This document shows, in pieces, positions 5,192 to 40,028 of a stretch of DNA of 64,000 nt. The DNA comes from an uncultured Thermoplasmatales archaeon. GTDB lineage: Archaea > Thermoplasmatota > E2 > DHVEG-1. Where the stretch lies: positions 7,497 to 71,496 of the forward strand of contig CAZTFR010000002.1 of the NCBI GenBank assembly GCA_964612945.1, written 5' to 3'. The stretch's first letter is position 1; every line of letters starts with the position of its first letter. The notes beneath the pieces were generated by a model. It did no database searches. It had not been told where the DNA came from and saw nothing but the letters and a program-made list of their open reading frames with translations. Made by a program: the position numbers and the translations under genes.

Positions 5192-5974
5192 ATGATCATT
5201 CTCAAACTAGGAGGAAGTGTGATCACTGATAAATCAAAAGTGCATCATTTTCATAAAGAAACTATGGCCCGTCTTGCAGCTGAAATCAAAAAAGCAGATA
5301 AGCAGTGTATCGTGATTCATGGTGCCGGATCGTTTGGTCATATTCCCGCAAAGAAATATCAGCTCAGTAAGGGATATGAGAACTCGGATCAACTCCTCGG
5401 TGTCTGCGAAACACAGGGCAGTGTCTTTGCGCTGAACACCTTGGTTGTTTCGGCGTTGCATCAGGCTGGTGTTTGTGCCGTGTCACTGCCACCGCGTGCT
5501 ATGCTCCAGCTCGAGCATCAAAAGCTTAACAAGTTTTCCTTTGATCTCTTCGAAGGCTACCTTTCCCTTGGATTCACCCCGGTAAGCTTTGGAGATGTAG
5601 TACTCGATACCAAACAGGGCTTTGCGATCTGCTCTGGGGATCTTCTCATCAGCACGCTCGTCCGTCATTTCAAACCTGAAAAGGTTGTCTTTGTCTTTGA
5701 CGAGGATGGCCTCTACACCGCAAATCCCAAGCACAATGCCGATGCTACCCTTGTCAATACAATTTCAGTTGATGATTTTCCCCGTGTAGGCCTTCAGGCA
5801 GACACACATGATGATGTCACCCAGGGCATGCGGGGAAAGCTACAGGTCATAAAAGAAATTGCCTCGCAGGGGATTGATAGCTTTCTTGTCAACGGTAATA
5901 TAGATAACAGGCTTTATCATACACTGATGGGAAAAGAAACCATTCATACCAGAATTATTGGAGGGCCCCTATGA
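5192..5974 (+). CDS. ipk: Isopentenyl phosphate kinase (amino-acid kinase fold)
   Basis: 260 aa, MIILKLGGSVITDK...IHGAGSFGH; first gene of an archaeal alternative-mevalonate operon; stop overlaps the next ATG. Confidence 0.75.
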   Translation: MIILKLGGSVITDKSKVHHFHKETMARLAAEIKKADKQCIVIHGAGSFGHIPAKKYQLSKGYENSDQLLGVCETQGSVFALNTLVVSALHQAGVCAVSLPPRAMLQLEHQKLNKFSFDLFEGYLSLGFTPVSFGDVVLDTKQGFAICSGDLLISTLVRHFKPEKVVFVFDEDGLYTANPKHNADATLVNTISVDDFPRVGLQADTHDDVTQGMRGKLQVIKEIASQGIDSFLVNGNIDNRLYHTLMGKETIHTRIIGGPL

Positions 5975-7017
5975 ACATCACGGAGCAACGAAAACGTGAT
6001 CACATCCAGATCTCACTTGATGAAAACATCTCTGCACATCACAACTACTGGGATGATGTCCATCTTGTCCATAATGCATTACCGGAGATCAATGTAGATG
6101 AAATTGATACCACCATCGCGCTGTTTAAAAAAAAACTTAGTGCACCCTTGGTTATATCGGCGATGACCGGAGGGTATGCACAGGGAAAACATATCAATGA
6201 AAATCTGGCTAAGGCCGCCGAAAAATTTCAACTTGCAATGGGCGTGGGATCACAACGAGCAGCCTTGGAAAACAAGGATCTTATTCAGACCTACAGCGTC
6301 ATCAAGGAGTATGATATTCCCCTTAAAATCGCAAACATCGGAGCCTCACAACTCGCACTCTGGGATAAAAAAAAGATATTGAACAATGCAAACGCCATTG
6401 TCGACATGATTAATGCTGACATCCTTGCAGTATGCTTGAATTTTCTTCAAGAAGTCGTGCAACCTGAAGGAGAAGCCCATGCAAAAGGATGCCTGGAAAA
6501 AATCACAATGCTTTCTAAAGAGTTCAACCGACCGATTCTCATCAAAGAAAGCGGCGCGGGCATCTCAGGAACCGTGGCAAGTAAATTACGAAAAACAAAC
6601 ATCGCCGGCATCGACATCGGCGGCCTGGGCGGCACCTCTTTTTCCGCCGTGGAATACTACCGAGCCAAACAAGCAGCTGATGAATTTAACATGCGCGAAG
6701 GACAAACCTTCTGGGATTGGGGTATACCCACCCCAACAGCTCTTCTTCAAACCGGCCAAGCAACCGGGTGGGATCTTCCCCTTATCGCAACCGGTGGCAT
6801 CAGAAATGGTCTTGACGTAGCAAAAGCAATACCTCTTGGGGCAAATGCAGCAGGCATCGCCCATGCCCTCCTCAAACCTGCCACTAAAACCGCAGATGCA
6901 ACCACCTTCGAACTCGAGGTTATCATCAGAGAATTAACCACGGCGATGTTTCTTGTTGGCGCAGAAAAGGTAACTGATCTTTCAGGTGTGAAAGTCCATT
7001 ATGAACCTCATTACTAA
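5971..7017 (+). CDS. fni: Isopentenyl-diphosphate delta-isomerase type 2 (FMN-dependent)
   Basis: 348 aa TIM-barrel, ...VISAMTGG... and Gly-rich FMN motifs; 4-nt overlap with ipk. Confidence 0.8.
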   Translation: MNITEQRKRDHIQISLDENISAHHNYWDDVHLVHNALPEINVDEIDTTIALFKKKLSAPLVISAMTGGYAQGKHINENLAKAAEKFQLAMGVGSQRAALENKDLIQTYSVIKEYDIPLKIANIGASQLALWDKKKILNNANAIVDMINADILAVCLNFLQEVVQPEGEAHAKGCLEKITMLSKEFNRPILIKESGAGISGTVASKLRKTNIAGIDIGGLGGTSFSAVEYYRAKQAADEFNMREGQTFWDWGIPTPTALLQTGQATGWDLPLIATGGIRNGLDVAKAIPLGANAAGIAHALLKPATKTADATTFELEVIIRELTTAMFLVGAEKVTDLSGVKVHYEPHY

Positions 7018-18820: not shown

Positions 18821-19927
18821 ATGAAAGTTGCGATGCTCGGCTGGGAATATCCCCCATTCAAAGTGGGAGGGTTAGGAACTCATTGTTATGGGTTGACTCG
18901 AAGTCTTGCTGATAAAGAGATCCATGTCGATTTTTATATGCCGAAAACCAAGCATCGCGCCAAAAGTGATAATGATCATTTGAAGATTATTGAAGTTGGT
19001 GAAACCGAGATTTTTCCCTATGATAGACCTGAGGATAAAGCGCTTGCGGGTCATTTTTTTGAAAGTGTTCACCGGTATAATGAGCTGCTGGTACAGAGGG
19101 TAAAAGGGACCTATGATATGGTTCATGCCCATGATTGGTTGACCATGGAGGCCGGTGTTGGCATCAGCGAAAAAGTAGGTATTCCTTTGGTGCTCACGGT
19201 GCATTCGACCGAGTATGATCGGTCAGGGTGGTTGCATCCCAATGAATGGTTTATTTCTATGGAACGCCGGGGGATGCAGAAGGCGCAGCGTATCATCGCA
19301 GTCAGTGAGTTTACCAAGCGGGTGATTGTGGAAAAGTATGGGATCAACCCAGATAAGATTTCAGTGGTACATAATGCAGTATATCCGATTGGCCACGGCA
19401 AGAAGAAAAATATTGTACTGTTTCTTGGCAGGCTCACCATTCAGAAAGGTCCTGAGTTTTTTTTGAAAACTGCAAAGAAGGTTCTTGAGTATGAGGATAC
19501 CCATTTTGTGATGGCGGGTATGGGCGATATGCTGCCGCGTTTGATAGATCAAGCCGTTGAGTTGGGAATTGCAAATAGGATTATTTTTACCGGGAAGCTC
19601 ACTGAAGATGAGGTGAAACATATCTATAAGCTATCCAGTGTGTATGTGATGCCATCGGTCAGTGAGCCGTTTGGCATTACCGCGCTTGAAGCAATATCTG
19701 CAGGGACGCCCACGATTGTTTCCAAAACTGCAGGTGTATCTGAGGTATTTCAGAATTGTTTAAAGGTTGATTTTTGGGATACTGATGAGATGGCAAATAA
19801 GATTATTGCGCTGCTTCGGTATCAGCCGTTACATAAGACGATGCAGGAGAATTCGCAAAAGGAGATCGATTTATTTACCTGGGATCGTGTCGCTGATCGG
19901 ACCATTGACGTCTACAAAGAGGTTTAG
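18821..19927 (+). CDS. GlgA-like glycosyltransferase (archaeal glycogen/alpha-glucan synthase family), short form
   Basis: MKVAMLGWEYPPFKVGGLGTH N-terminus, as in archaeal glycogen synthases; EX7E motif SEPFGITALEAISAGTP. Confidence 0.6.
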   Translation: MKVAMLGWEYPPFKVGGLGTHCYGLTRSLADKEIHVDFYMPKTKHRAKSDNDHLKIIEVGETEIFPYDRPEDKALAGHFFESVHRYNELLVQRVKGTYDMVHAHDWLTMEAGVGISEKVGIPLVLTVHSTEYDRSGWLHPNEWFISMERRGMQKAQRIIAVSEFTKRVIVEKYGINPDKISVVHNAVYPIGHGKKKNIVLFLGRLTIQKGPEFFLKTAKKVLEYEDTHFVMAGMGDMLPRLIDQAVELGIANRIIFTGKLTEDEVKHIYKLSSVYVMPSVSEPFGITALEAISAGTPTIVSKTAGVSEVFQNCLKVDFWDTDEMANKIIALLRYQPLHKTMQENSQKEIDLFTWDRVADRTIDVYKEV

Positions 19928-21120
19928 TGGGTATGCCTTCGGTGTGTTGTTATTTTGAGGTTCATCAACCGATGAGATTGAACCGTTTTTCGGTGTTTAA
20001 CATTGGAAAAAAGGATGATGCATTTACTACCTATTTTGATCATAGTTTAAATGAGGAGATTTTTCATAAGGTTGCCACCAAGTGTTATCTTCCTACCAAT
20101 CGGCTTTTACTTGATTTAATCAAAGAAACCCGGGGTGCATTTCGTCTCTCGTTTAGCCTTACCGGGACCTTTGTGGAGTATTGTGAGCGGTTTATGCCTG
20201 AGGTTTTAGACTCTTTTAAGGAGTTGTTTCGCACGGGTGCGGTGGATTTTATTGAGGAAACCTATTATCATTCCTTGTCATCGTTGTACGAACAGCTTGA
20301 TGAATTCGAGGATCAAGTTCGGCTGCACGGTCAGCTGATGAAGGAGCTTTTTAATTATCAACCACGAGTATTTCGAAATACTGAGGCAATTTATGATAAT
20401 CGTATCGCACAGAAAGTGGCAGATCTTGGCTATGAAGGAATTATTACGGAGGGATCCACCAAGATTTTGGATTGGCGATCTCCAAATTATTTGTATAAAC
20501 CAGTGAATGCTGATATTAAGGTATTGATGCGTAATTATAATCTCAGTGATGATGTAGGGTTTCGTTTTTCATCCTGCAACTGGCCGGGATTTCCTTTAAC
20601 TGCTGAAAAGTATGCTTCATGGATGGCACAGAGCACCGGTGATATCATCAATATTTTCATTGATTATGAGACCTTTGGGGAGCATCAATGGACAGAAACC
20701 GGTATCTTTGATTTTCTAAAACGCTTTCCCCATGAAGTACTCAACTATGAACATCTTGATTTTGTTACCGTAAGTGAAGCAGTGGATCGCTTTCAGCCTC
20801 GAGGCGAAATTGATGTGCCCACCGCGATTTCTTGGGCAGATGAAGACCGGGATGTTTCCACCTGGCTTGGAAATGACATGCAGATTGCCTGTTTCAACGA
20901 ACTCAAAGACATCGGACAAAAAATCCGGCAGCAACACCAACCAGAACTTACAAAAATCTGGCGACTCCTGCAGACCTCTGATCATCTCTACTATGTGTCC
21001 ACTAAAGGCTTTGAGGATGGAACCGTGCATGCCTACTTCAGTCCATACGAGGTCCCTTATGAAGGATTTATCAACTACATGAATATTCTTCAGGATCTCA
21101 AACAACGAATATTTTCATAA
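19927..21120 (+). CDS. Glycoside hydrolase family 57 protein (alpha-glucan active)
   Basis: 397 aa with GH57-like N-terminal catalytic region; overlaps the preceding stop. Confidence 0.55.
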   Translation: MGMPSVCCYFEVHQPMRLNRFSVFNIGKKDDAFTTYFDHSLNEEIFHKVATKCYLPTNRLLLDLIKETRGAFRLSFSLTGTFVEYCERFMPEVLDSFKELFRTGAVDFIEETYYHSLSSLYEQLDEFEDQVRLHGQLMKELFNYQPRVFRNTEAIYDNRIAQKVADLGYEGIITEGSTKILDWRSPNYLYKPVNADIKVLMRNYNLSDDVGFRFSSCNWPGFPLTAEKYASWMAQSTGDIINIFIDYETFGEHQWTETGIFDFLKRFPHEVLNYEHLDFVTVSEAVDRFQPRGEIDVPTAISWADEDRDVSTWLGNDMQIACFNELKDIGQKIRQQHQPELTKIWRLLQTSDHLYYVSTKGFEDGTVHAYFSPYEVPYEGFINYMNILQDLKQRIFS

Positions 21121-21163
21121 ACATAGACTGCATACCCTTTGTTTTGAGGAGAGAGCACACACA

Positions 21164-22441
21164 ATGAAAATTGCACATTTCTCATGGGAATACCCTCCAG
21201 TTTTATATGGCGGTCTGGGAACCTTTGCCATGGAGATGACCCAAAAGCAGGCAGAGCTGGGTCATCACGTCACGGTATTATCCCTAAACGAGGCAAACAA
21301 ATACCCTGTCGAAGAATCCAAACACAATATCAACATCTATCGCCCTCGCATGGTCAACTACAAGGATGTGCTGTCGCTGTGTGTCTCTGAAAATCTACGC
21401 CGCTGGGGTGAACATTTTCAATTCTTCTCCGATGTACTCAGCTATAATTTTCTTGCCGCCGATACCTTTGTCAGCACCTTACTGCAGAAAAAAAGGCAAA
21501 CCTTTGATCTTATTGATGCCCATGACTGGCTCGGCGTCCTCGCAGGAATTGTGGCCAAAAAAGAAACACAGCTTCCTCTCGTCTTTCATATTCATTCCAC
21601 CGAGACCGGACGATCCCTTGGCGGTGGATCTGCAACCATCAAAGACATCGAACAAAAAGGTGGAGAAACCGCCGATTGCATCATCACCGTATCCCATGCC
21701 ATGAAAGAGGAGCTCATTGAGCTCGGATTTCCAAAAGAAAAAATCCAGGTCTGTTGGAACGCAGTCGATCCAGAAAAATACAAACCGGAAACCATCACAC
21801 CTGAAGAAAAAGCACAGCTACGCAAACGCTACGGTGTCGCAGAGCATGAAACCGTCATCTTTTTTGTAGGAAGACTAGTCACCGTCAAAGGCGTAGACAA
21901 ACTCGTCGAGGCTATGCCGGAGATACTCGCAGAATACCCTGAGACGAAACTGGTGATTCTTGGCATCGGTGACATGGAACAAGACCTTCGCATGCATGCA
22001 GCATCAGCAGGGATAGAGGATCATATCATCTTCCGATCTGAATTTGTCTCCGAACACGAACGCATCAGACATTTCGCCTTTGCCGACGTGGTCGTACTCC
22101 CCTCCCTATATGAGCCCTTCGGCATCGTCTGCACCGAAGCGATGGCCATGGCAAAACCCGTCGTCGTCGGCGCACGAGGAACCAACGGCATGCGCGAACA
22201 AATCATCCCCTCAGGAAAAAACCAATGCGGCATACATATCAACCCCTATGATCCCTCGGATATCGCCTGGGGAATCAACCAAATCCTTGCCATTCCTGAC
22301 AAAGGCAAACAGATGGGTCTAAACGCCCGTAAGCGCGTCCTGCAGGAGTTCACCTGGGATATCATCGCCAAAAAAACACTTTCTATCTACCAGCAAACAA
22401 TCAACAAAACAACCCCTATGGTAACCCAGAAGATATCATGA
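21164..22441 (+). CDS. GlgA-like glycosyltransferase (glycogen/alpha-glucan synthase family)
   Basis: MKIAHFSWEYPPVLYGGLGTF N-terminus, paralogous to 18821..19927; EX7E motif YEPFGIVCTEAMAMAKPVV. Confidence 0.6.
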   Translation: MKIAHFSWEYPPVLYGGLGTFAMEMTQKQAELGHHVTVLSLNEANKYPVEESKHNINIYRPRMVNYKDVLSLCVSENLRRWGEHFQFFSDVLSYNFLAADTFVSTLLQKKRQTFDLIDAHDWLGVLAGIVAKKETQLPLVFHIHSTETGRSLGGGSATIKDIEQKGGETADCIITVSHAMKEELIELGFPKEKIQVCWNAVDPEKYKPETITPEEKAQLRKRYGVAEHETVIFFVGRLVTVKGVDKLVEAMPEILAEYPETKLVILGIGDMEQDLRMHAASAGIEDHIIFRSEFVSEHERIRHFAFADVVVLPSLYEPFGIVCTEAMAMAKPVVVGARGTNGMREQIIPSGKNQCGIHINPYDPSDIAWGINQILAIPDKGKQMGLNARKRVLQEFTWDIIAKKTLSIYQQTINKTTPMVTQKIS

Positions 22442-24297
22442 AAGAATGGATTGTAACAAACGGACTCGGCAGCTACGCCTCTCTGACTACGGATCATAAA
22501 AACACCCGAAAATTCCACGGGCTTCTCATCGCAAGCCTGAGACCACCCACACAACGGTGGATGTTTCTCTCCAATCTGTTTGAAACTCTGGTCACAAAAG
22601 AAGCAACCGTTCAGCTTCAACAAACACCCAGTCAGTTCAGCTTTAACCACTTCCCTCGCATCACCTATACCTTGCCCTCATGCACGCTCACCAAAACCGT
22701 TGTCATGCCTCATGATCAGAACACCGTACTTCTCCGCTACGATATCAATACAGACAAACCTGTCACCCTTCTGCTAAAACCAGTGATAAACTCTCGGCAT
22801 TTTTATGATACTACAACACCTGAAGCATTCTCTGTTGATCAACACCACTACAAAAACGGCATCACACTCACCCCCAGCAACATCGATAAAAAACTCCATA
22901 TCACTCTACCTGATGCCACCTATCAACCACATGGTGTATGGATACAGACCTATTATCAAAAAGACCATTATCGAAAAGAAAGCTGTATTGACTTCAACTA
23001 TATCTCCGGAGAATTTCAGAAGCAGATCACCGGTTCTTGCTCCTTTGATCTTCTCTGCACGTTAGAAGATGAAGTTGCTTTACCTGATTCTCTTTTTATA
23101 AATGAACAACAACGAAAAAATACGCTTCTTACCCAGGCAGATCTGCCAAAAGAATGTTCGCCACTGGTTCTTTCATCGGATCGCTTTATTGTGCAAAAAA
23201 ACTCGGGGAAATCCATTATTGCTGGTTATCATTGGTTTGCTGACTGGGGCCGAGACACCCTGATTGCGCTCCCAGGTCTCGCTCTAGTTCCCAAACGTTT
23301 TGGGGATGCAAAACAGATTCTTCATCAGTTCAGCAGCTACAGAAAGCAGGGGCTCATTCCTAATGCCTTTATGGATCGAGATTCAGAACCCGTCTATAAC
23401 ACTGTTGATGCCTCACTATGGTTTATCGATAGAGTCTATCAATATATGAAATATACAAATGACATGGAGACATTGCAGAAGATTTGGCCGGCACTCGCTG
23501 AAATCATCCAGTATTACACGCATGGCACCCTCTATGATATTCATATGGATACTGATTATCTCATATCACATGAAAAAGGACTCACCTGGATGGATGTCAA
23601 ACTTGACGAGTACTACCCTACCCCCCGGGCATACAAAGCAGTAGAAATTCAGGCTCTCTGGTACAATGCACTGCAGATTATGAGCCAGTTTGCCCGCATT
23701 CTTGATAAAGAAGACATCTATCACGAACTTGCTGTACAAGTAAAAGATCACTTTGCCAAGGCCTACGATCAAAATTATGATGTTCTTGATTCGAAAGACT
23801 GCAGCATCCGACCGAATCAAATCTTTTTAGTCTCTCTTGATTTTTCAATGATTCCAGATAGCAGAAAGCAGCAGGTCGTATCAACGGTTCAAAACCATCT
23901 TCTTACGCCCTTTGGTCTTCGTTCACTTGCTCCATCTGATCCAAACTATAAAGGAACCTATCTTGGTCCGTATAACCGTGATGAAGCCTATCATAATGGG
24001 ACGGTGTGGGCCTGGCTTCTTGGACCCTTTGTGACTGCGTATGTGAAAATCCATAAACACACCGCCTCTGCACGAAATGATGCATATGAAGAGTTTCTCC
24101 AGCCGATGTTTCAGATTTTTGGTGATGAGTGGGATGGCAGCATTTATGAAATTTTTGATGGAAATCCGCCATTCATCCCCCGAGGGTGTATCTCTCAAGC
24201 GTGGAGTGTCGCAGAGATCTTACGCTGTTGGGTGGAAGATATTAAAAATATTCGGCCCGAATATGAGGACCTTTTTTTACATAAAATACGCGTTTAA
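22438..24297 (+). CDS. Amylo-alpha-1,6-glucosidase / archaeal-type glycogen debranching enzyme (GDE_C, six-hairpin glycosidase)
   Basis: 619 aa; GYHWFADWGRDT motif typical of the GDE_C family; 4-nt overlap with the upstream GT. Confidence 0.6.
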   Translation: MKEWIVTNGLGSYASLTTDHKNTRKFHGLLIASLRPPTQRWMFLSNLFETLVTKEATVQLQQTPSQFSFNHFPRITYTLPSCTLTKTVVMPHDQNTVLLRYDINTDKPVTLLLKPVINSRHFYDTTTPEAFSVDQHHYKNGITLTPSNIDKKLHITLPDATYQPHGVWIQTYYQKDHYRKESCIDFNYISGEFQKQITGSCSFDLLCTLEDEVALPDSLFINEQQRKNTLLTQADLPKECSPLVLSSDRFIVQKNSGKSIIAGYHWFADWGRDTLIALPGLALVPKRFGDAKQILHQFSSYRKQGLIPNAFMDRDSEPVYNTVDASLWFIDRVYQYMKYTNDMETLQKIWPALAEIIQYYTHGTLYDIHMDTDYLISHEKGLTWMDVKLDEYYPTPRAYKAVEIQALWYNALQIMSQFARILDKEDIYHELAVQVKDHFAKAYDQNYDVLDSKDCSIRPNQIFLVSLDFSMIPDSRKQQVVSTVQNHLLTPFGLRSLAPSDPNYKGTYLGPYNRDEAYHNGTVWAWLLGPFVTAYVKIHKHTASARNDAYEEFLQPMFQIFGDEWDGSIYEIFDGNPPFIPRGCISQAWSVAEILRCWVEDIKNIRPEYEDLFLHKIRV

Positions 24298-25992
24298 AAC
24301 GTATTGCTGTATCATGCGGTTGGTGTTAAAAAATGAGGCATTAATAGCGATGCAGCTGCGCATGGTGCGTATCCAGTTGTCTCGGTCGGTGTAGAATTTT
24401 GGTATGATCCAGTTTTCCAGTTTGTTGTAGAGATCATTCCGATCGATTTCATCATCTGATGCTTCTTCTTGGGTTTTTTCAGGGCCGATGGACCAACCGG
24501 TGATGTTTTCGATGCAGCCTTCAAGCCACCAGCCGTCCAGGGTGCTGAACTGGGGAACACCGTTGTGTGCGGCTTTCATGCCTGATGTTCCTGATGCTTC
24601 ATAGGGACGTCGGGGTGTGTTGAGCCAGAGGTCGACGCCTGAGGTCATAAGTTTTGCAATGGTGATATCGTAGTTGTGGATGTAGGCGATTTTTACGTTG
24701 CCCTTGATGGTTTTCATGGTTTCAAAGATTTTTTTGATGGTTTGTTTTCCTGAGGTATCCTTTGGGTGTGCTTTTCCTGCGTAGATGATTTGTATGGACC
24801 CGACTCGTTCTGCGATTTCTGAGATGCGGTTGGGATCTGAAATTAAAAGATCAGGTCGTTTGTAGGCGGTTTGTCTCCGTGCAAATCCGATAGTGAAATG
24901 ATCGTAGTTCATGCCGACGTTGTAGCGGCTGTTGACAAAGTCAATAAGGTTTTTTTTGGCTTCCATGTGTGCATTCCAGACTTCTTCTTTGTCCATGCTG
25001 AATGCAGATCGGAGGATGTAGGGGTCTGATCGCCAGCCGGGCATATGTTTGTCGAAGAGTCGTTGGAAGGGGTCTGATACCCAGGTGGTGGTGTGGACGC
25101 CGTTGGTGATGGAGTCGATGGAGTAACCGGGGAACATGAGTCGTGAGACTTCGCCGTGTTTTTTTGCAACGCCGTTGACGTAGTGGCTGAAGAAGAGGGC
25201 AAGTCGGGTCATGTTGAGTTTGTTTTCGAAGGTGATTTCATGGATGAGTGATTCGGGGAGGAGTTCGGCGATCATAGGTTTTGCAAAGGAGAGATCAAAT
25301 TGGTCGTGTCCGGCGGCGACAGGTGTGTGAGTGGTGAAGACGCAGCGTTGTCGTACTTGTTCGATGTCTTGGAGTTGTCGGTAGAGTTCGAGTGTCCCAA
25401 GGGCGGCGTGTCCTTCGTTCATGTGGTATTTGTCGATGGTTTCGTAGCCGAGTGCCTGGATTGCGCGTACACCGCCGACGCCGAGGATTATTTCTTGGCT
25501 GAGCCGGTATTTTTGTTCTCCTCCGTAGAGGTGTTTGGTGATTTCTCGGTCTTGTTCGCTATTTTCTTCAAGGTTGGTATCAAGAAAGAAGACGGGAACG
25601 ATGTAGTTGTTGATACCTGTGATGAGGTAGTACCAGATTTGGATGGCAACAGTTCGTCCTTCAATGGTCACATTTGTTTTGGTGGGAAGTAGGGTGAGAA
25701 AGTCGTTGATATTGAAGTTGATGGGTACTTCGATTTGGTTGCCGTCGTTGTCAATTTTTTGGTAGAAGTAGCCTTGTTCGGAGAGCAGGGTCATGCCGAC
25801 GATAGGAATGTTGAGATCGGCACAGGATTTAAGGATGTCTCCGGCAAGAACTCCGAGGCCGCCGCTATAGGTGGGAATGCGTTTGTCAAGGCCGATTTCC
25901 ATGGAGAAATAGGCGATTTTTGGGTGAACGTCCAATGGGGTTTCTTGTACTTGTACGCTTTCTTCTGTTTCTTCAACGGTTTCTGTTTCCAT
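24277..25992 (-). CDS. Alpha-glucan (glycogen/maltodextrin) phosphorylase, short GT35 type
   Basis: 571 aa; PLP-lysine region EASGTSGMKAAHNGV; convergent with the debranching enzyme gene. Confidence 0.7.
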   Translation of the reverse strand: METETVEETEESVQVQETPLDVHPKIAYFSMEIGLDKRIPTYSGGLGVLAGDILKSCADLNIPIVGMTLLSEQGYFYQKIDNDGNQIEVPINFNINDFLTLLPTKTNVTIEGRTVAIQIWYYLITGINNYIVPVFFLDTNLEENSEQDREITKHLYGGEQKYRLSQEIILGVGGVRAIQALGYETIDKYHMNEGHAALGTLELYRQLQDIEQVRQRCVFTTHTPVAAGHDQFDLSFAKPMIAELLPESLIHEITFENKLNMTRLALFFSHYVNGVAKKHGEVSRLMFPGYSIDSITNGVHTTTWVSDPFQRLFDKHMPGWRSDPYILRSAFSMDKEEVWNAHMEAKKNLIDFVNSRYNVGMNYDHFTIGFARRQTAYKRPDLLISDPNRISEIAERVGSIQIIYAGKAHPKDTSGKQTIKKIFETMKTIKGNVKIAYIHNYDITIAKLMTSGVDLWLNTPRRPYEASGTSGMKAAHNGVPQFSTLDGWWLEGCIENITGWSIGPEKTQEEASDDEIDRNDLYNKLENWIIPKFYTDRDNWIRTMRSCIAINASFFNTNRMIQQYVLNAYFM

Positions 25993-27894: not shown

Positions 27895-29103
27895 TTAGAG
27901 ATATTTTCGTACAGTAAGTGATGCGATATTGAAGTTTCCTGCGGTATCATAGGCGACGACATAGAGTGTTTTTTTATGGTTGGTTAGGATGGGTTGATTC
28001 CAAAGCCAGGTGTAAGGTTCGCTGTAGTCGGACCATTGCAGATTTGGGTTTCCTTCGATGTAGAAATCTACTTTTTCTATAGATGATTGAGTGTCGGTTG
28101 CGGTGGCTTGGATGGTAATTCTTCCAACGATAAGGGTGTGTTGTCTGATGACGAAGGGAAGGATGCGTCTGTCTCTGAGGTAGATGCCGTTTTGTGGTGA
28201 GGTGATGAGCAGGTAGGGTGGAGTGGTGTCTTGTGTTTCATGGGGGCTCATGAGCGGGTATTCATCTTGGTTTATACCGCCGGGGATGTCATAGGGTATG
28301 TCGCCGATGCCGTTGCCATCGGCGTCCAGGCCGGTGTAGTCGTCCCAATAGTTGCCTCTGTTGCGTATGGGATGATCCCAGAGGTTGTGTGCATTGTCAT
28401 AGGCATGGTGTCGGTTGGTAAGAAAGTTGTTTGAGTGGATGTTGTTATGGGAGCAGTCGGTGAGGTGTATTGCGGTGTAGCCGTTGTTTTGTAGGGTGTT
28501 ATTTTTGATGGTGTTTTGGGTGCTGCATGCTTGGAGTTGTATGCCGTTCCAGGTGTTATTTGCAATTGTTGCGTAGGTTATCGTGGTTTGATGTGTGTTG
28601 TGAAATGTGATGCCGTGGTAGTTGTGGTGCATTGTGCAGTGGGTGATCGTGGTATTTGTAGTATGGAGAAGGATGCCGGTGTTAGAGGGATATTGTCCAC
28701 TGTTTTGTATAGTGAAGTTTGCTATGGTACAGTGTGGTGCGAGGACAGTTACAGGGTTATGTGAGTGGTTGGCATCAATGATGGTTGTTGAGGTATCTTC
28801 CCCTGTTATGGTGAGTGTTTTGGTGACGGTGATGTATTCGCGGTAGGTTCCCGAGAAGACGAATATAGCATCGTAGGGGGTGGCGTTGGTGATGGCGTCT
28901 TGGATGTATTGAAAGGGGTGATTGAGGCTTCCATCCCAGGGGCCGACTGTGTTGTCATCGTCAACATAGAGTATACAGCAGGCGGCGTTCTGATGAGAAG
29001 AGAGATGAGAGGGTGTTGCAGAAAGCGGTACGAGAATGCTGCTACCTGCCAAAAAGAGGATCACTGCGAACAGTGTATAAGGGGTATTTTTGAGTGTAAT
29101 CAT
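27895..29103 (-). CDS. Secreted right-handed parallel beta-helix (NosD/pectin-lyase-fold) protein with C-terminal Ig-like module
   Basis: Signal peptide; many N/T/H-rich beta-helix rungs (NNTLQNNGYTAIHLTDCSHNNIHSNNF). The C-terminus (PPYLLITSP...PYTWLWN...AYDTAGN) is shared with the M14 and M28 proteins. Confidence 0.55.
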   Translation of the reverse strand: MITLKNTPYTLFAVILFLAGSSILVPLSATPSHLSSHQNAACCILYVDDDNTVGPWDGSLNHPFQYIQDAITNATPYDAIFVFSGTYREYITVTKTLTITGEDTSTTIIDANHSHNPVTVLAPHCTIANFTIQNSGQYPSNTGILLHTTNTTITHCTMHHNYHGITFHNTHQTTITYATIANNTWNGIQLQACSTQNTIKNNTLQNNGYTAIHLTDCSHNNIHSNNFLTNRHHAYDNAHNLWDHPIRNRGNYWDDYTGLDADGNGIGDIPYDIPGGINQDEYPLMSPHETQDTTPPYLLITSPQNGIYLRDRRILPFVIRQHTLIVGRITIQATATDTQSSIEKVDFYIEGNPNLQWSDYSEPYTWLWNQPILTNHKKTLYVVAYDTAGNFNIASLTVRKYL

Positions 29104-29232
29104 GTGCTTGTTTCTCCTGTTAGTGTTTTTGGGGTGTGTTTCTAAAGGAGGGCAGGTAGTACATATTATGCCACCTATTTAAATATTACTTGGAAAATAT
29201 TAGTGAGAGAGTTTGGGTGCTTTTTTTTTGGG

Positions 29233-30342
29233 TTAGACAAAGTGTCCTTTTTTGTAGATGAGCTTGCCATCTGCGTAGACTTCTCCTTGTTTTCGAAGAT
29301 CAAGCATCATGTCCCAATGCAGGCTTGATTTGTTTATGCTTCCTGTTTCAGGGTAGCCGCTTCCAACGGCGAGATGAATGGTTCCTCCGATTTTTTCGTC
29401 AAAGAGGGTGTTGAGGGTATACTGTTTGACACCGTAGTTGGTTCCAAAGGCAAATTCACCAAGCCGTCGTGCCCCGGGGTCCATGTCAAGCATGGTTTTA
29501 AGGAATTGTTCTTCTTTGGATGCTTTTGCTTTGACCACTTTTCCTTTTGAAAACCAGAGTTGTACGTCATCGACTTCGCGTCCTCCATAGGAGATGGGAA
29601 ATGAGTAGTGTATGTGTCCTTCCGCAGAGGTTTCCACGGGTCCGGTGAAGATTTCACCGTCGGGGAAGTTTTCTTTTCCGTAGCAGTTGATCCATGTTCG
29701 GTTTTCCACGGACAGAGTGAGATCGGTGTCTTCGGCGATGATTTGGATCTTTTTCTTAGTCTCCAAGCGTTTTTTTATGGTTTCTTGTTCTTTTTGCACC
29801 TTTCTCCAGTGGGCTATGGGGTCTTTTTTATGGGTGTGTGCGGCCTTGTAGACAAAGTCTTCGTATTCAGACAGTGACATACGTGCGTCTTGAGCTGAAG
29901 CGTTAGTGGGATATTGGGTAACGCACCAGCGGAGTTCTTTTGTGGCTGCTCGTTTGAGAAAGAGATCATGGAGTTCTTTGTGTGCGACGCTGCTGATGGC
30001 TTGTTTTTTAGGATCAATGTTGGTCATGTTTTTTGTGTTTTCTGGGCTGATAATGGCCAGTCGTGCGTCTATATGCTTGAGTTCGTAAGTATCAATGGGG
30101 TTGACATATTTGAGTTGATGGTCAGCTGCGTTTTTATAAAAGAGTTCAGCAAGACCTGAAACGCCACTTTTGATGTAGGGATGTGCACCTATGTGAAGTG
30201 CCTCTCTGTAGACTTCTCGTATGAGGGGTGCTGCGAGATGGTTTCCAGAGATGACAAAGAGATCATTTTTTTTGAGTTGCAGGCTGTGATGGGTGAGAAT
30301 GTAGGCAAGTTTTTCCACTCGTTTGTCTTTCATAACAATCAA
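29233..30342 (-). CDS. Aminopeptidase, peptidase M29 (AmpS/PepS family)
   Basis: 369 aa; C-terminal ...HLAVGSGYPETGS...HWDMMLD motifs typical of M29. Confidence 0.65.
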   Translation of the reverse strand: MIVMKDKRVEKLAYILTHHSLQLKKNDLFVISGNHLAAPLIREVYREALHIGAHPYIKSGVSGLAELFYKNAADHQLKYVNPIDTYELKHIDARLAIISPENTKNMTNIDPKKQAISSVAHKELHDLFLKRAATKELRWCVTQYPTNASAQDARMSLSEYEDFVYKAAHTHKKDPIAHWRKVQKEQETIKKRLETKKKIQIIAEDTDLTLSVENRTWINCYGKENFPDGEIFTGPVETSAEGHIHYSFPISYGGREVDDVQLWFSKGKVVKAKASKEEQFLKTMLDMDPGARRLGEFAFGTNYGVKQYTLNTLFDEKIGGTIHLAVGSGYPETGSINKSSLHWDMMLDLRKQGEVYADGKLIYKKGHFV

Positions 30343-30438
30343 ACCTGATTATGACATAGTGGTGGTGATGAAATAGTTTTTTCTTTAATAAATAAAAAAA
30401 GCATCTTTTTTGTGCATTACTTATAGGGATTCGTCTGT

Positions 30439-31680
30439 TTAGATATCCTCCCATTCTTTCAAGACTGATTCCCATTTATAATCCTTAATGCCTTTGATTT
30501 CTTCGATGCTTCGAATGATTTTTTCATAGCCACGTACTAGTGTTCGGGTTTGAATTTTTACGATGAAATCATAGGGTCCGGAGACTGCGGTAACCCGGGC
30601 GACTCCATTGATATTCCAGAGGTTCTGCATAATGTCATCAATTGAATACCCGGGTTTCATATGAATGAAAATATAGGCTTTTACCTGGGTGATTGCGTAG
30701 GAGACAATGCCAAGGACAATTAGGACGGTTCCAATGATTTTTAGAAGAATCATCACCGGGTCTGCAGAAACTGCAGGGGCAATAGCAAAATAGGACAAGA
30801 GAAGAGAGAGTGGGATGGTAAACAGAATGGTAGATGAGCGTACTGCTTGGGTCACACTTGCTTTTCCTATGCCAAGGGCGCGGATATAAAACACGTAGGA
30901 AAAAAAGGTAATTCCCATGCTGAGTGAGACAATGTTAACATGAGCAAATGCCTCCTGAAATCCCTCGATGAGATGGGTTGTTCCCATGAGTGCATCAAAG
31001 AGTATACTGATTCCAATAATAATGATACAGGAGAAGAGGACATTCCAAAAGCGGATGTTCATTGCGTCATTTGATCTTCGGTCAATTTTCAGGCGTTTCA
31101 GCTTCCGTTGGTAGATGGAAAAGAGCATCCATGCAGGGTTGACGACGAGAAACACAATCAGCATCGATTCAAGGGTGATCGTTCCAGTGAGACTAATGGA
31201 TCCCAGAAGGGCACCGAAGGTGACAATCATGGCTGATTGCACCTCAGGGAGCGTGGGGATATTTTTTTCCACCACTGATTCGATAAGTACAATGTAGAGA
31301 ATGGCGATTTGCGAAAAAGGAAGCACTGTTGAGGGATCACCCATCATTGACATTAAGGTGAGAAATCCAATAGTGAGAATGGCGTTTCCCACTCCGGCGA
31401 CAAGCTGATAGGAAATTTCTTCTTTTCGTATCAGTCGGAGACGCGTAAAGGAGGGATCGATATATCGTGCTCCCAGACTTTTTCCCTTCACTTTAAGAGA
31501 TAAGATGCTAATAAGCAGAAGCGAGATGGGAATTCCTACCAAGAAATTTGCCAGGGCAAACGCCCAGGCATTGGGGATAAATAAGGCAGAAATTGTGGCA
31601 TCAATGGTGGTCACAATAGATATTAAAATAGCAGAAGAAAATGCGAGCGCGTAAAAAAGATATTTTTTTCTTATTTTCAT
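30439..31680 (-). CDS. DMT/EamA-like 10-TM permease fused to a C-terminal Lrp/AsnC RAM ligand-binding domain
   Basis: 413 aa. ~10 hydrophobic helices are followed by AYIFIHMKPGYSIDDIMQNLWNINGVARVTAVSGPYDFIVKIQTRTLVRGYEKIIRSIEEIKGIKDY, a betaalpha-betabeta-alpha-beta RAM-domain pattern. Confidence 0.55.
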   Translation of the reverse strand: MKIRKKYLFYALAFSSAILISIVTTIDATISALFIPNAWAFALANFLVGIPISLLLISILSLKVKGKSLGARYIDPSFTRLRLIRKEEISYQLVAGVGNAILTIGFLTLMSMMGDPSTVLPFSQIAILYIVLIESVVEKNIPTLPEVQSAMIVTFGALLGSISLTGTITLESMLIVFLVVNPAWMLFSIYQRKLKRLKIDRRSNDAMNIRFWNVLFSCIIIIGISILFDALMGTTHLIEGFQEAFAHVNIVSLSMGITFFSYVFYIRALGIGKASVTQAVRSSTILFTIPLSLLLSYFAIAPAVSADPVMILLKIIGTVLIVLGIVSYAITQVKAYIFIHMKPGYSIDDIMQNLWNINGVARVTAVSGPYDFIVKIQTRTLVRGYEKIIRSIEEIKGIKDYKWESVLKEWEDI

Positions 31681-31916
31681 AGGGCGATTTCTTTTTCTAT
31701 GACATGAGTGGTGGTTTTTCGTACCCCCTCAATCATCTGTAGCTCTTCGGTCACTTTCAATAGTTTCTGAAGTGTGCGTACTTGCACGCGTACTACGATA
31801 TCATGTTCCCCGGCAACGATACTGATTTTACGAATATTTGATATTTTCCTCATCTGTCCGATTGCTTTATCGGTATTTCCGGGTTGCATGGCGATCATGA
31901 TATAGGCATGAATCAT
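31677..31916 (-). CDS. Stand-alone Lrp/AsnC-type RAM (ligand-binding) domain protein
   Basis: 79 aa: MIHAYIMIAMQPGNTDKAIGQMRKISNIRKISIVAGEHDIVVRVQVRTLQKLLKVTEELQMIEGVRKTTTHVI; 4-nt overlap (ATGA) with the permease start. Confidence 0.6.
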   Translation of the reverse strand: MIHAYIMIAMQPGNTDKAIGQMRKISNIRKISIVAGEHDIVVRVQVRTLQKLLKVTEELQMIEGVRKTTTHVIEKEIAL

Positions 31917-32045
31917 AGTCTTTTTTCACCTGTGATTTGAGGGCGAATATAGATGTCTCTTATAAATTTATGTATGTAATTTGATTTAATTTAGTTTCGT
32001 AGATAGCAATATGCTTATCAAAAACAATGTGTTTGTCGGTTATGC

Positions 32046-37742: not shown

Positions 37743-40028
37743 ATGAAGAAAAGTGTAGTATTTTTCGTGGTCGTAGGAATCCTTATTGGCACAAGTTTTC
37801 TTGGATTTGCAGAAACGATACCTGATACATCTGCCGCTGTATCATCAGATGCGGCATCTGCATTGGTTCGCTTATATGTTGGTGATGATTTAAGCCGTGT
37901 CCCTCGTGAGTTTGAAAAGGTCGCCCGACATCCTGGGGAATCTGTTGATGTGATTCTGTCATCAGATCAGTTGGAAACTCTTGGTATGCGTGATGGTACC
38001 TATGAGGTGTTGATTTCTGATGTTGATGCCTATGATCGAACTGTTGCAGCTTCTTATCATAGCTTAGCAGAAACCGAGCAGATGCTTGCAGATATCGCTG
38101 ATGATTATTCGCAGATCACACAGTTGACTAGTCTTGGGAAATCCTATCAAGATCGGGATATCTGGTGTCTAGAAGTTTCTGATAACCCTGGTGTTGATGA
38201 GGGTGAGCCTGGTGTGGTCTTGTTGGGTCTTCATCATGCCCGTGAGTGGCCGAGTTTAGAGATTTGTTTGTATATCGCAGATACCTTGACCTCTGAGTAT
38301 GGATCAGATACCCAGTTGACCTCGCTTGTTGATTCCCGGCGGATTTGGATTGTTCCTTGTGTTAATCCTGATGGATACTACTATGATCATGATCAGGGCC
38401 ATGATTGGCGGAAAAACAGACATTATTTCCCAGAGTTTGGCACCTATGGTGTTGATTTAAACCGAAATTATCCGGGGTCCTGTAATGGTGATCCTACTGG
38501 ATCCTGGGGGTCTATTGGTATTGCCTCTGCGACTCATAACCCTGCGTATAGTACGTATTGTGGCCCAGGTCCGTTTTCAGAGTTGGAGACACAGGCAGTA
38601 CAACAGCTCTTTCTTTCAAACAATGTAAGTGCCTGTATCACCTGGCACACCTATTCTGAACTGGTTCTCTGGCCATGGGCATATTCTACTATTGCAAAAT
38701 CGCCGGATGATAGCTACATGAAACAAGTCGGTCAAGAAATTGCCTCACGGATTACTCGTCAGAGTGGATCTGGAACCTATACACCAAGTCAATCTTCAGG
38801 CTTATATCCTACGACGGGTGATACTACAGACTGGACCTATGGACATGCACATTATATCCTTGGTAGACCCACCTTTTCCTACACGATTGAGGCATGTTCC
38901 TCGTTTCATCCCTCTTCATCCTATCTTGATCAAATTGTATCAGAAAACTTTGATGGCGCACTTTACCTGTTAACGGAAGCTGAAAATATCCAACAGGTCG
39001 TCCCACGAGTTATTCCGCCACGGCTTCAGGATATTTCGTATAGTGAAACAGGTGATTACACCGTACAGTGGGAGGAGGTGAATCCTGCTGCTCAACCAGA
39101 TGTCTTTCAACTTGATGAACTGTCGGGTCTCTCGTATCATGTTGATGATGCTGAGACTCCCTCATCATACTGGGAGCTTGAGCGTTTTACTCTTTCAGAT
39201 GAACGAGCTCATTCTGGAGCACAGAGCTACCAATCACATCAGGGCAATGGCCGCATTTCCACGATGACCAGTATCATGCCACTTCCCATTCTGAATGTTA
39301 GCACGGTGAGTTTCTGGACCTGGTATAATATTGAGGAAAACTGGGATTTTGCCTTTTTTGAGGTAAGCAGAGAAGGCCGCTGTTTCGAAGTCATTGACTC
39401 CTACACGGGGTCCTCTGATGAATGGCAATACAAAGAGTATGATCTCTCTAAATATTATGGGGATTCTGTGTTTCTCCGATTCCGCTATTCCACCGATGAA
39501 GAAGTTACCGGGGAAGGATTTTATGTAGATGATATTTCCCCTCTTGCGCAGTTTGAAATAGTCGCCACTCTATCTGATACACTCACCACGGATTCCTATG
39601 AGATAACCGGAAGGCAAAATGGAACCTATTTCTATCGTATACGTGGAGAAAACAGCGAACACGGATGGGGTGATTTCAGCACCCTGCAATATGTATTAGT
39701 AGGAGATGCACAAGACACAGAACCTCCCTCTCTGACTCTGAGCAGACCGGCTCCGAATCGTCTCTATTTCAATAATCGAAATCTGCTTCCATTCTTTGCA
39801 ACAGTAATCATCGGTGAGATTACCATCGAAGCAGAAGCCTTTGACCCCTCAGGTATCAAAAAGGTAGAGTTTCTGATCAATGGCGACGTTCGGGAAACTG
39901 ATAGTACACCACCATACAACTGGACCTGGAAAGATAGTACCTTCTTAAAAAAGGAAATTAGCATACGTGCCAGTGATTATTTCGAAAACAATGCTGAGCA
40001 GCAAATTACTATCTGGAAATTCTTCTAA
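37743..40028 (+). CDS. Secreted zinc carboxypeptidase (peptidase M14) with long C-terminal extension ending in an Ig-like module
   Basis: Signal peptide; GLHHAREWPS zinc-ligand motif; C-terminal ~95 aa homologous to the C-termini of 27895..29103 and 43043..44350. Confidence 0.7.
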   Translation: MKKSVVFFVVVGILIGTSFLGFAETIPDTSAAVSSDAASALVRLYVGDDLSRVPREFEKVARHPGESVDVILSSDQLETLGMRDGTYEVLISDVDAYDRTVAASYHSLAETEQMLADIADDYSQITQLTSLGKSYQDRDIWCLEVSDNPGVDEGEPGVVLLGLHHAREWPSLEICLYIADTLTSEYGSDTQLTSLVDSRRIWIVPCVNPDGYYYDHDQGHDWRKNRHYFPEFGTYGVDLNRNYPGSCNGDPTGSWGSIGIASATHNPAYSTYCGPGPFSELETQAVQQLFLSNNVSACITWHTYSELVLWPWAYSTIAKSPDDSYMKQVGQEIASRITRQSGSGTYTPSQSSGLYPTTGDTTDWTYGHAHYILGRPTFSYTIEACSSFHPSSSYLDQIVSENFDGALYLLTEAENIQQVVPRVIPPRLQDISYSETGDYTVQWEEVNPAAQPDVFQLDELSGLSYHVDDAETPSSYWELERFTLSDERAHSGAQSYQSHQGNGRISTMTSIMPLPILNVSTVSFWTWYNIEENWDFAFFEVSREGRCFEVIDSYTGSSDEWQYKEYDLSKYYGDSVFLRFRYSTDEEVTGEGFYVDDISPLAQFEIVATLSDTLTTDSYEITGRQNGTYFYRIRGENSEHGWGDFSTLQYVLVGDAQDTEPPSLTLSRPAPNRLYFNNRNLLPFFATVIIGEITIEAEAFDPSGIKKVEFLINGDVRETDSTPPYNWTWKDSTFLKKEISIRASDYFENNAEQQITIWKFF

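Follow-up and report, generated by a model that had tools for sequence, protein, structure and literature searches.

The 64-kb window (the whole 64,000-nucleotide stretch of DNA analyzed here) encodes a predicted ten-helix DMT transporter that ends in a cytoplasmic RAM domain and is accompanied by a co-translated and probably obligate partner consisting of a free RAM domain. As read from its sequence, this module most likely functions as a metabolite-gated, and probably amino-acid-gated, DMT transporter with the free RAM protein as an obligate subunit. Operation as a substrate-activated efflux valve is the specific form that we favor, with confidence that stands at about the halfway mark.

Both open reading frames are on the minus strand (all coordinates are positions in the window). 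The upstream gene (31677-31916) specifies the 79-residue free, or stand-alone, RAM protein, identified by PF01037, by its AF2 model and by Foldseek; the downstream gene (30439-31680) specifies the 413-residue DMT-fold transporter with its fused C-terminal RAM domain. Residues 1-330 of the latter (30691-31680) constitute the membrane part, with ten TM helices in the DMT fold, and residues 331-413 together with the stop codon (30439-30690) constitute the cytoplasmic RAM tail. The two genes are translationally coupled through an ATGA stop/start overlap (31677-31680, minus strand). The preliminary description had reported these two reading frames and their overlap, which are present as given, and had proposed that the pair is translationally coupled, a proposal that comparison with related loci bears out: the 4-base overlap is identical in 73 of 75 pairs, and none of 74 loci has a Shine-Dalgarno-like motif in the 22 nt that precede the start codon of the fusion gene (0/74). 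An SD-like motif of the GGTG type is found 9-18 nt upstream of the free RAM gene at 46 of 74 loci. Its counterpart in the window is GGTGA (31926-31930, minus strand), which precedes the free RAM start by 10-14 nt, and a TATA-like box, ACATAAATTTATAA (31960-31973, minus strand), is located 44-57 nt upstream of the same start. Most related loci have a motif, GATAAnTTTATAA, that resembles this TATA-like box, 40-55 nt upstream; the box is a putative promoter element.

The free RAM gene is found directly upstream of the fusion gene at 76 of 80 loci. Three of the exceptions are contig ends, leaving 76 of 77 informative loci; L024 has a fusion gene with no adjoining free RAM gene. The pairing extends to distant lineages, in which the fusion proteins are only 24-30% identical. 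What these counts show is that the conserved unit comprises the fusion gene and the free RAM gene, translationally coupled and linked near-universally. Termination-reinitiation coupling across a fixed overlap argues that the free RAM protein is made as a stoichiometric subunit, not as a pool that diffuses freely. (Pairwise identities of the free RAM protein correlate with those of the tail at 0.84 and with those of the membrane part at 0.72; although the direction is as expected, these correlations are confounded by shared phylogeny and are not counted as evidence.)

No neighbor besides the free RAM gene is universal among the 80 related loci. In the window the pair is followed by a gene for an M29 aminopeptidase (29233-30342, minus strand; PF02073, 302.9 bits), which in reality probably begins with the ATG at 30333. 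An M29 gene follows the pair at only ~30 of the 80 loci, and it was accordingly rejected as part of the core unit; a purF-like gene is a neighbor at 25 loci, an MTAP-like gene at 10, and elsewhere the neighbors are unrelated. The suggestion that the module fits a peptide-degrading way of life, made at the outset on account of the many peptidases, is consequently sustained in a clade-specific sense but not as a general one.

The 79-residue protein matches PF01037 at 44.6 bits (E 1.3e-11; gathering score 25 bits) over residues 6-73 and consists of a single RAM domain without any further domain, its size being that of the ~75-90-residue class. Its AF2 model, built from the single sequence, has a pLDDT of 86.8 and the beta-alpha-beta-beta-alpha-beta pattern, and superimposes on TTHA0845, DM1, STS042 and FL11 (TM 0.83-0.90 by Foldseek). 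Length is 79 residues in nearly all orthologues and the C-terminal V-I-E-K-E is invariant. G36, D39, T68 and T70 are each present in 73 of 73 aligned orthologues, so that both halves of the amino-acid-backbone clamp of RAM domains, G-x-x-D and T-x-T, are kept and the clamp is complete; its residues are retained in the most distant free RAM partners as well.

The tail of the 413-residue protein is a second, paralogous module, 30% identical with the free RAM protein (E 1e-12). Residues 337-408 match PF01037 at 32.4 bits (E 8.4e-8), and the tail scanned by itself scores 35.2 bits. In the AF2 model its strands and helices span residues 335-405. The G-x-x-D half of the clamp is kept, with G368 in 73 and D371 in 72 of 73 orthologues. 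The place of T-x-T is held by Y/F401-K-W403-E-S405; the alignment of beta5 is uncertain between two registers, Y401-K-W403 and W403-E-S405, neither of which offers a Thr pair. Some deep-branching tails retain Thr residues. The terminal LKEWE is near-invariant.

Neither protein matches any HTH family of Pfam at E<=1, and residues 1-331 of the longer one are taken up by its ten membrane helices. The matches of the fusion protein to the NCBIfam LysM/AsnC/Lrp models are confined to the RAM part and fall far under the cut-offs (27 vs 180 bits); the labels in the source records, 'DNA-binding Lrp family transcriptional regulator' among them, are wrong for the fusion family. In identifying the 79-residue product as a stand-alone RAM domain, the C-terminus of the permease as another, and both proteins as devoid of an HTH, the preliminary description was right on each count.

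Assignment of the membrane part is less direct. The window's 413-residue protein has no match to PF00892 (EamA; gathering score 28.2 bits) even at E<=1, and Pfam and NCBIfam scans assign it to no transporter family whatsoever; the DMT assignment therefore rests on fold and on relatives. Thirteen of 24 diverse family members match EamA at E<=0.01 (best 3.9e-8), one relative, P0133, scoring 28.3 bits, and 2 of the 24 have weak matches to TIGR00950, the carboxylate/amino acid/amine transporter model. (A profile of the 24 members searched against PDB sequences retrieves RAM and Lrp-type proteins only, at E 1e-7 to 1e-11, and no DMT protein.) The protein has the DMT fold, its ten TM helices leaving the N- and C-terminus on the cytoplasmic side, in an AF2 model of moderate quality (pLDDT 72.7; <50 at residues 125-144 and 273-290). 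Its Lys and Arg residues number 22 inside and 0 outside, a positive-inside charge distribution that shows the RAM tail, on that reckoning, to be on the cytoplasmic side. The motifs DPSF, EKxxPTxxE, NDxxNIRxW and YIRALGxGK are conserved and particular to the fusion family. Among the cytoplasmic loops, considered as a docking surface, loop 8-9 alone is conspicuous in its conservation, which is suggestive at best. The protein is thus a predicted DMT-type carrier, with transport as its presumptive activity, and the original designation 'EamA-like 10-TM' survives in its ten-TM DMT fold and in the EamA matches of its relatives but not in a Pfam match of its own.

Is the fusion real? A frameshift, in assembly or sequencing, that ran the reading frame of a permease into that of a RAM protein was the reservation attached to the architecture when it was first noted. 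It is refuted by conservation across independent assemblies and its probability is now negligible: full-length homologues number in the hundreds, the best 120 are all 413-420 residues long at 100% coverage and come from four independent sources (NCBI, JGI, ENA and Logan assemblies), and the fused architecture persists at 24-42% identity. Moreover, in the AF2 model TM10 (308-331) leads in a single frame into the strand at 335-341. A genome scan (with A3, a subset of the diverse alignment A2) finds the fusion gene in 103 species-level genomes, and 23 of the 24 diverse members match PF01037. The family is small, its members in a set of 1.8 billion representatives falling into 67 clusters at 50% identity; its hosts are Thermoplasmatota, Asgardarchaeia, Thorarchaeota and one 'Thermoprotei' MAG.

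How the two RAM modules might work together is suggested by solved structures. The RAM ligand pocket is located between dimers (PMC2995911), and in the Grp-Gln structure the clamp is made of D102 together with T132 and T134 of the neighboring dimer, the Asp contacting the alpha-amino group and T-x-T the carboxylate of the ligand (PMC2504300). A full clamp in the free RAM protein and a tail without T-x-T suggest composite binding sites, and since solved RAM sites pair the G-x-x-D loop with the T-x-T of a neighboring dimer, these would be composed of G368 and D371 of the tail and T68 and T70 of the free RAM protein. Tail and free RAM would form a hetero-oligomer on the cytoplasmic face of the transporter; a cytoplasmic amino acid or close metabolite in the composite site would alter the hetero-RAM assembly, and this change would be relayed straight to the transport cycle, a direct relay being proposed because the RAM domain begins only 2-3 residues past TM10. 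Ligand gating, hetero-oligomerization and the amino-acid nature of the ligand are what we infer; their combination, in which a cytoplasmic amino acid occupies the composite sites of the hetero-oligomer and the transporter is thereby gated directly, is put forward tentatively, at somewhat less than even confidence. Certain archaeal Lrp-family proteins bind no amino acids, and DM1 is reportedly responsive to 2-oxoglutarate (PMC2995911), so the ligand may be something other than an amino acid. The short connection of 2-3 residues to TM10 makes the octamer-like ring of tails that had initially been envisaged look awkward; a small hetero-assembly at the cytoplasmic side of the transporter is the likelier form. 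What stands of that initial reading as a whole is a DMT-fold permease with a RAM tail, no HTH and a coupled free RAM protein; what calls for revision is EamA by Pfam and, probably, the octamer ring.

The RAM modules might instead serve assembly or stability only (dimerization, folding or protection), with no sensing of a ligand. RAM domains oligomerize in every solved case and the Thr pair of the clamp has been lost from the tail, as such a role would allow. On the other hand, a purely structural role would not need conservation of the clamp, and G-x-x-D and T-x-T are invariant in 73/73 free RAM proteins, G-x-x-D is retained in 72-73/73 tails, and the clamp residues are kept in the most distant partners. 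We consider it improbable that assembly is all that the modules do.

An alternative that retains sensing places the output elsewhere. The RAM tail at the membrane would capture or release the free RAM protein according to the state of transport or ligand, and the freed protein would join full-length Lrp-type regulators and change transcription, in the manner of the sequestration of GlnK by AmtB. That sequestration is itself the precedent for a conserved gene pair of transporter and small sensor (PMC10710835), and in vitro DM1, itself a stand-alone RAM protein, assembles with full-length FL11 into hetero-octamers, the role of stand-alone RAM proteins being called unclear (PMC2995911). Against a signaling device of this kind is the mode of synthesis already described (a fixed 4-base overlap and no ribosome-binding motif of the fusion's own), which points to a stoichiometric subunit; moreover, the 64-kb window contains no full-length Lrp regulator or other RAM gene, and no Lrp-type regulator gene adjoins the pair at the related loci inspected. 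The chance that the free RAM protein acts in this way is accordingly small.

For direct gating of the transporter by its hetero-RAM assembly, we are least sure of the direction and of the sign of control. Characterized prokaryotic 10-TM EamA/DME carriers (YddG, RhtA and EamA) are mostly exporters of amino acids or metabolites, and such exporters are typically switched on transcriptionally by Lrp-type sensors. It is on these grounds, and only by analogy, that a substrate-activated efflux valve would be preferred to an importer. Sequence leaves the direction unfixed, and the evidence for an efflux valve fits equally well an importer of the same architecture, with the same hetero-RAM sensor, that is shut at high cytoplasmic substrate (trans-inhibition, as by the C2 domains of MetNI). 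Trans-inhibition has the best-documented precedent: in MetNI and ModABC, fused C-terminal domains stop the transport cycle when the substrate being transported is bound at the interface between domains (PMC10710835). The hosts, moreover, are sediment archaea with secreted peptidases that would import amino acids: a secreted-type M14 carboxypeptidase with MAM and Ig domains is encoded in the window and a C25 peptidase at the related locus L001, and the M29 aminopeptidase of the ~30 loci points the same way. Set against this is the predominance of exporters among characterized 10-TM members, and import is, on balance, unlikely, though less so than the two alternatives already considered.

The known proteins to which the free RAM protein can be compared are P. 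horikoshii DM1 (PDB 2e1a/2z4p), S. tokodaii STS042 (2zbc) and T. thermophilus TTHA0845 (2djw), with which it has size, fold (TM 0.82-0.90), clamp and spacing in common; like it, these stand-alone RAM proteins have no DNA-binding domain. Its invariant V-I-E-K-E C-terminus sets it apart from them, and whereas they have no assigned physiological partner (PMC2995911), it is coupled to a membrane protein with a paralogous RAM domain. The Lrp/AsnC (feast/famine) regulators FL11, Grp (ST1022), LysM and E. coli AsnC have a homologous effector domain with matching clamp residues, but they carry an N-terminal HTH, which both proteins here lack, the RAM domain being attached to a transporter instead. We know of no characterized DMT protein with a RAM domain. 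From the DMT superfamily with its 10-TM EamA/DME-type carriers (YddG, PDB 5i20; also TPT, 5y78, LicB, 7b0k, and the nucleotide-sugar transporters) the window protein has diverged too far for an EamA match.

Among regulated transporters, the closest known way of working is that of the MetNI C2 domain, a small C-terminal ligand-binding domain on a transporter that holds its amino acid at a domain-domain interface (PMC10710835). MetNI, however, is a primary ABC transporter with a regulatory domain of another family and no free copy of that domain, whereas the carrier here would be a secondary one of the DMT type. The RAM tail, with its positive-inside placement and a first strand at 335, is cytoplasmic and contiguous with the transporter, as a fused regulatory domain should be. 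GlnK-AmtB is likewise a conserved pair of transporter and small metabolite sensor, docking 1:1 on the cytoplasmic face (PMC10710835), and the operon linkage across lineages that characterizes such pairs is found here also (76/80 loci and distant lineages). AmtB has no PII-like domain, while the transporter here carries a paralogue of its partner, for which reason a RAM-RAM contact would be expected rather than a pore-plugging loop. Finally, in P. aeruginosa the gene of an EamA transporter is under the control of an Lrp/AsnC regulator (PA2577/PA2576; PMC8707732). The same two protein families are paired there, but the regulator acts on transcription, by way of an HTH and a divergent promoter; absence of the HTH and attachment of the sensor to the carrier imply that control here would be at the level of protein.

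One of the largest families of archaeal regulators senses amino acids through its RAM domains. Ever since their structures became available, the many stand-alone RAM proteins have lacked a clear role in the cell (PMC2995911); with the fusion family one of them gains a defined partner, together with a testable model in which fused and free RAM subunits build the ligand sites jointly. Plug-on domains are recognized as a widespread means of controlling transporters post-translationally and have been characterized for only a few types (C2, CBS, CNBD, PAS and UspA); a 2023 review names neither RAM nor any DMT example (PMC10710835). No description of RAM-transporter fusions, or of a RAM/transporter domain pair, was found in the open-access literature searched, in line with the initial impression that this architecture had not been characterized, and the module probably represents an undescribed mode of control, in which the level of a metabolite acts directly as the switch of a transporter. 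The family also exposes a systematic annotation error, in which membrane proteins are labeled as DNA-binding Lrp regulators. If the proposed mechanism is true, it would provide the first membrane-level, non-transcriptional role of the Lrp/AsnC sensor domain, and a stand-alone RAM protein would for the first time have a defined role in physiology. The module is conserved among sediment archaea, both in uncultured protein degraders whose metabolism centers on amino-acid traffic (MBG-D-type Thermoplasmatota and Asgard) and in Thermoproteota.

The 64-kb window, from an uncultured Thermoplasmatota archaeon, has only two RAM genes, which are adjacent and lie on the minus strand: the ORF of a 79-aa protein (the free RAM, or RAM79; 31677-31916) is followed downstream by that of the 413-aa fusion protein (30439-31680), and the start codon of the long ORF overlaps the stop codon of the short one in an ATGA at 31677-31680, exactly as the preliminary description placed them. 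The RAM domains that it assigned to the C-terminus of the long protein and to the whole of the short one are borne out by Pfam (PF01037, gathering score 25), with matches at residues 337-408 of the former (32.4 bits, E 8.4e-8) and 6-73 of the latter (44.6 bits, E 1.3e-11). Neither protein matches any Pfam helix-turn-helix family, even at E<=1, again as had been claimed; NCBIfam LysM, AsnC and Lrp matches are confined to the RAM part and fall far under their cut-offs.

Searching 5.8 billion proteins yields more than 700 homologues. The best 120 are 413-420 aa long with full coverage at 62-69% identity (the closest being 69% identical) and are drawn from NCBI, JGI, ENA and Logan assemblies; one bears the name of the Thermoplasmatales single-cell genome SCGC AB-540-F20. 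Agreement among four assembly sources leaves an artefactual joining of two genes with next to no probability, and PF01037 is matched by 23 of 24 diverse alignment members (24-64% identity): the fusion is genuine. When residues 1-330, the membrane part without the tail, are the query, an exhaustive HMMER search of 1.8 billion cluster representatives finds only 67 clusters, whose complete members, down to ~26% identity, are 396-426 aa long and have therefore kept the tail; the weakest matches (330-352 aa) are without it. Among genomes, one for each GTDB species, 103 relatives were found and 80 kept, these being Thermoplasmatota MAGs without exception; source names of distant members include Candidatus Asgardarchaeum/Asgardarchaeia, Thorarchaeota and a 'Thermoprotei archaeon' MAG. 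(Members are labelled as hypothetical, as 'Lrp/AsnC ligand binding domain-containing' or as 'DNA-binding Lrp family transcriptional regulator'. The last name, or simply 'transcriptional regulator', is carried by the ten-helix membrane proteins P0026, P0027, P0200 and others; given to proteins with no DNA-binding domain, it is a propagating annotation error.)

Description of the long protein as an EamA-like permease stands in part. It has no Pfam EamA match of its own, but by fold, and through homologues, it belongs to the DMT superfamily: PF00892 is matched by 13 of 24 diverse family members (best 3.9e-8), with homologue P0133 attaining the gathering score, and TIGR00950 ('carboxylate/amino acid/amine transporter') is weakly matched by two of the 24. 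GDP-mannose transporter, PfCRT and SLC35B1 are named beside this assignment; a sequence search of the PDB with the family profile found no DMT proteins.

It is as a pair that the genes are conserved. In 76 of the 80 Thermoplasmatota loci the fusion gene directly follows, on the same strand, a RAM79 orthologue, almost always of 79 aa; three of the others are at contig ends, leaving a single true absence (L024:3700-5242, with a 51-aa non-RAM ORF upstream of the fusion gene and a replication factor C-like gene downstream). The 4-base overlap noted in the window is identical in 73 of 75 related pairs. Fusions with no more than 24-30% identity to the one in the window still have a RAM partner: an 80-aa RAM gene overlapping by 4 bases (P0155), a 91-aa RAM gene 17 bases upstream (P0139) or a partial RAM ORF upstream (P0133); these distant partners score 60-73 bits against the RAM79 profile, as against 27-45 bits for fused tails, and are therefore RAM79 orthologues. 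A TATA-like GATAAnTTTATAA box lies 40-55 nt upstream of the free RAM gene, and a GGTG-type Shine-Dalgarno-like motif precedes that gene by 9-18 nt in 46 of 74 loci but the fusion start in none of the 74. Expression of the long gene thus seems to rely on termination-reinitiation at the end of the short one, an arrangement that would favor equimolar synthesis of both proteins.

The two RAM modules are paralogues (30% identical, E 1e-12). In the Grp-glutamine structure, the ligand's α-amino group is held by D102 of a G99-x-x-D102 loop and its carboxylate by T132 and T134 of a neighboring-dimer subunit (PMC2504300); RAM pockets generally lie between dimers and their backbone-contacting residues are well conserved (PMC2995911). 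Across 73 unique pairs, the corresponding clamp residues of the free RAM (G36, D39, T68 and T70, with DM1-like spacing) are invariant. The tail keeps the loop (G368 in 73/73, D371 in 72/73) but in neither plausible alignment register a Thr pair; at that position it has Y/F401-K-W403-E-S405, followed by a near-invariant LKEWE end. (Some deep-branching tails retain Thr residues.) The modules thus look complementary, in that a complete canonical site could arise from a tail loop and a free-RAM strand. A purely structural role for both modules fits poorly with invariant clamp residues and is improbable. (Genomes with the pair carry several free RAM proteins; in L005 a second stand-alone gene, of 76 aa, lies at 5246-5476, 3.5 kb downstream of the pair and beside a phosphorylase gene.)

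With helices taken from the predicted model, all 22 Lys/Arg of the loops fall on the side of the two termini and none in the five loops that face the other way, so that the RAM tail is cytoplasmic. TM10 ends at residue 331 in the model and the first RAM strand begins at 335, across a conserved V/I-K/R-A-Y junction. So short a link would relay movement directly between the RAM assembly and TM10, and leaves little likelihood of tails forming a free-standing octameric ring. Within the protein, conservation is highest in cytoplasmic loop 8-9 (RALGIGKAS...); the charged membrane residues invariant throughout the family (D27, E146, D205, R210) would suit a polar or charged substrate.

Neighbors other than the free RAM gene are variable. 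The gene directly after the pair is purF-like (amidotransferase) in 25 loci and an MTAP-like phosphorylase in 10; an M29 aminopeptidase gene follows the pair in ~30 of 80, as in the window (29233-30342). There, the stretch that separates the fusion and M29 genes has a T7 run and then GAAAAAACTATTTCA (30369-30400, minus strand); many related loci (L008-L017) have a near-identical GGAAAACTATTTCA motif in the corresponding position. This element possibly combines a terminator with the promoter of M29, or it could be a regulatory site. In L002 and L005 the purF-like gene directly follows M29, whereas in the window a NosD/right-handed β-helix gene with a Big_7 domain (27895-29103, minus) separates the two and so looks to have been inserted into a conserved gene order. 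From 28000 to 30350, on both strands, many long spurious ORFs overlap genuine genes, either opposite them or in another frame (e.g., 28231-28434 and 29608-29877), accompanied at 28-30 kb by a strong skew (GC skew +0.32, AT skew -0.27). A glycogen-metabolism cluster (19927-25992) comprises GH57 (19927-21120), GT4 starch-synthase-like glycosyltransferase (21164-22441), GDE_N/GDE_C debranching enzyme (22438-24297) and, on the opposite strand, carbohydrate phosphorylase (24277-25992); L005 also has phosphorylase and GDE genes near the pair. The 761-aa M14 zinc carboxypeptidase, with InhA-like MAM and bacterial Ig (Big_7) domains (37743-40028, plus), is probably secreted or at the surface, consistent with a protein-degrading lifestyle; a divergent radical-SAM/HhH gene and genes for RNase III, a CBS protein and a DASS symporter are also nearby. 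On L091, the contig of the distant P0139 pair, a gelsolin-domain gene (PF00626; 1896-2618) 1.1 kb upstream suggests an Asgard-archaeal origin, in agreement with the names of other members. The gene after that fusion (5401-6570) weakly matches AstE/AspA (succinylglutamate desuccinylase/aspartoacylase); its predicted amino-acid release is a possible parallel to the window M29.

The components come from known families (RAM domain, stand-alone RAM proteins, DMT fold), and the principle has precedents too: plug-on regulatory domains in the cytoplasm, and gene pairs of a transporter with a small sensor, are described in a review that mentions neither RAM, Lrp, ACT nor EamA (PMC10710835). Nothing relevant on RAM paired with or fused to a transporter domain was found in the open-access literature, a coverage that keeps this absence from being proof. 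Under the scheme proposed here, to which as a whole we give about an even chance, the fused tail and the co-translated free RAM would together form a hetero-oligomeric sensor of an amino acid, or of a metabolite related to one, in the cytoplasm, and through it the DMT carrier would be regulated at the protein level. That the pair might instead be a signaling device, sequestering or releasing free RAM for Lrp regulators, has analogies in GlnK-AmtB and the FL11-DM1 hetero-octamer and is a long shot. Somewhat less unlikely, though still doubtful, is the same RAM device on an importer, acting by trans-inhibition as in MetNI. Most of the EamA-type carriers with ten TM helices that have been characterized in prokaryotes export amino acids or metabolites, and it is partly by this analogy that the gated carrier is favored to be a substrate-activated efflux valve. 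The other ground is that Lrp-type sensors are the usual switches of such carriers at the level of transcription (e.g., PA2577/PA2576; PMC8707732), a control that the archaeal pair would exert on the protein itself.
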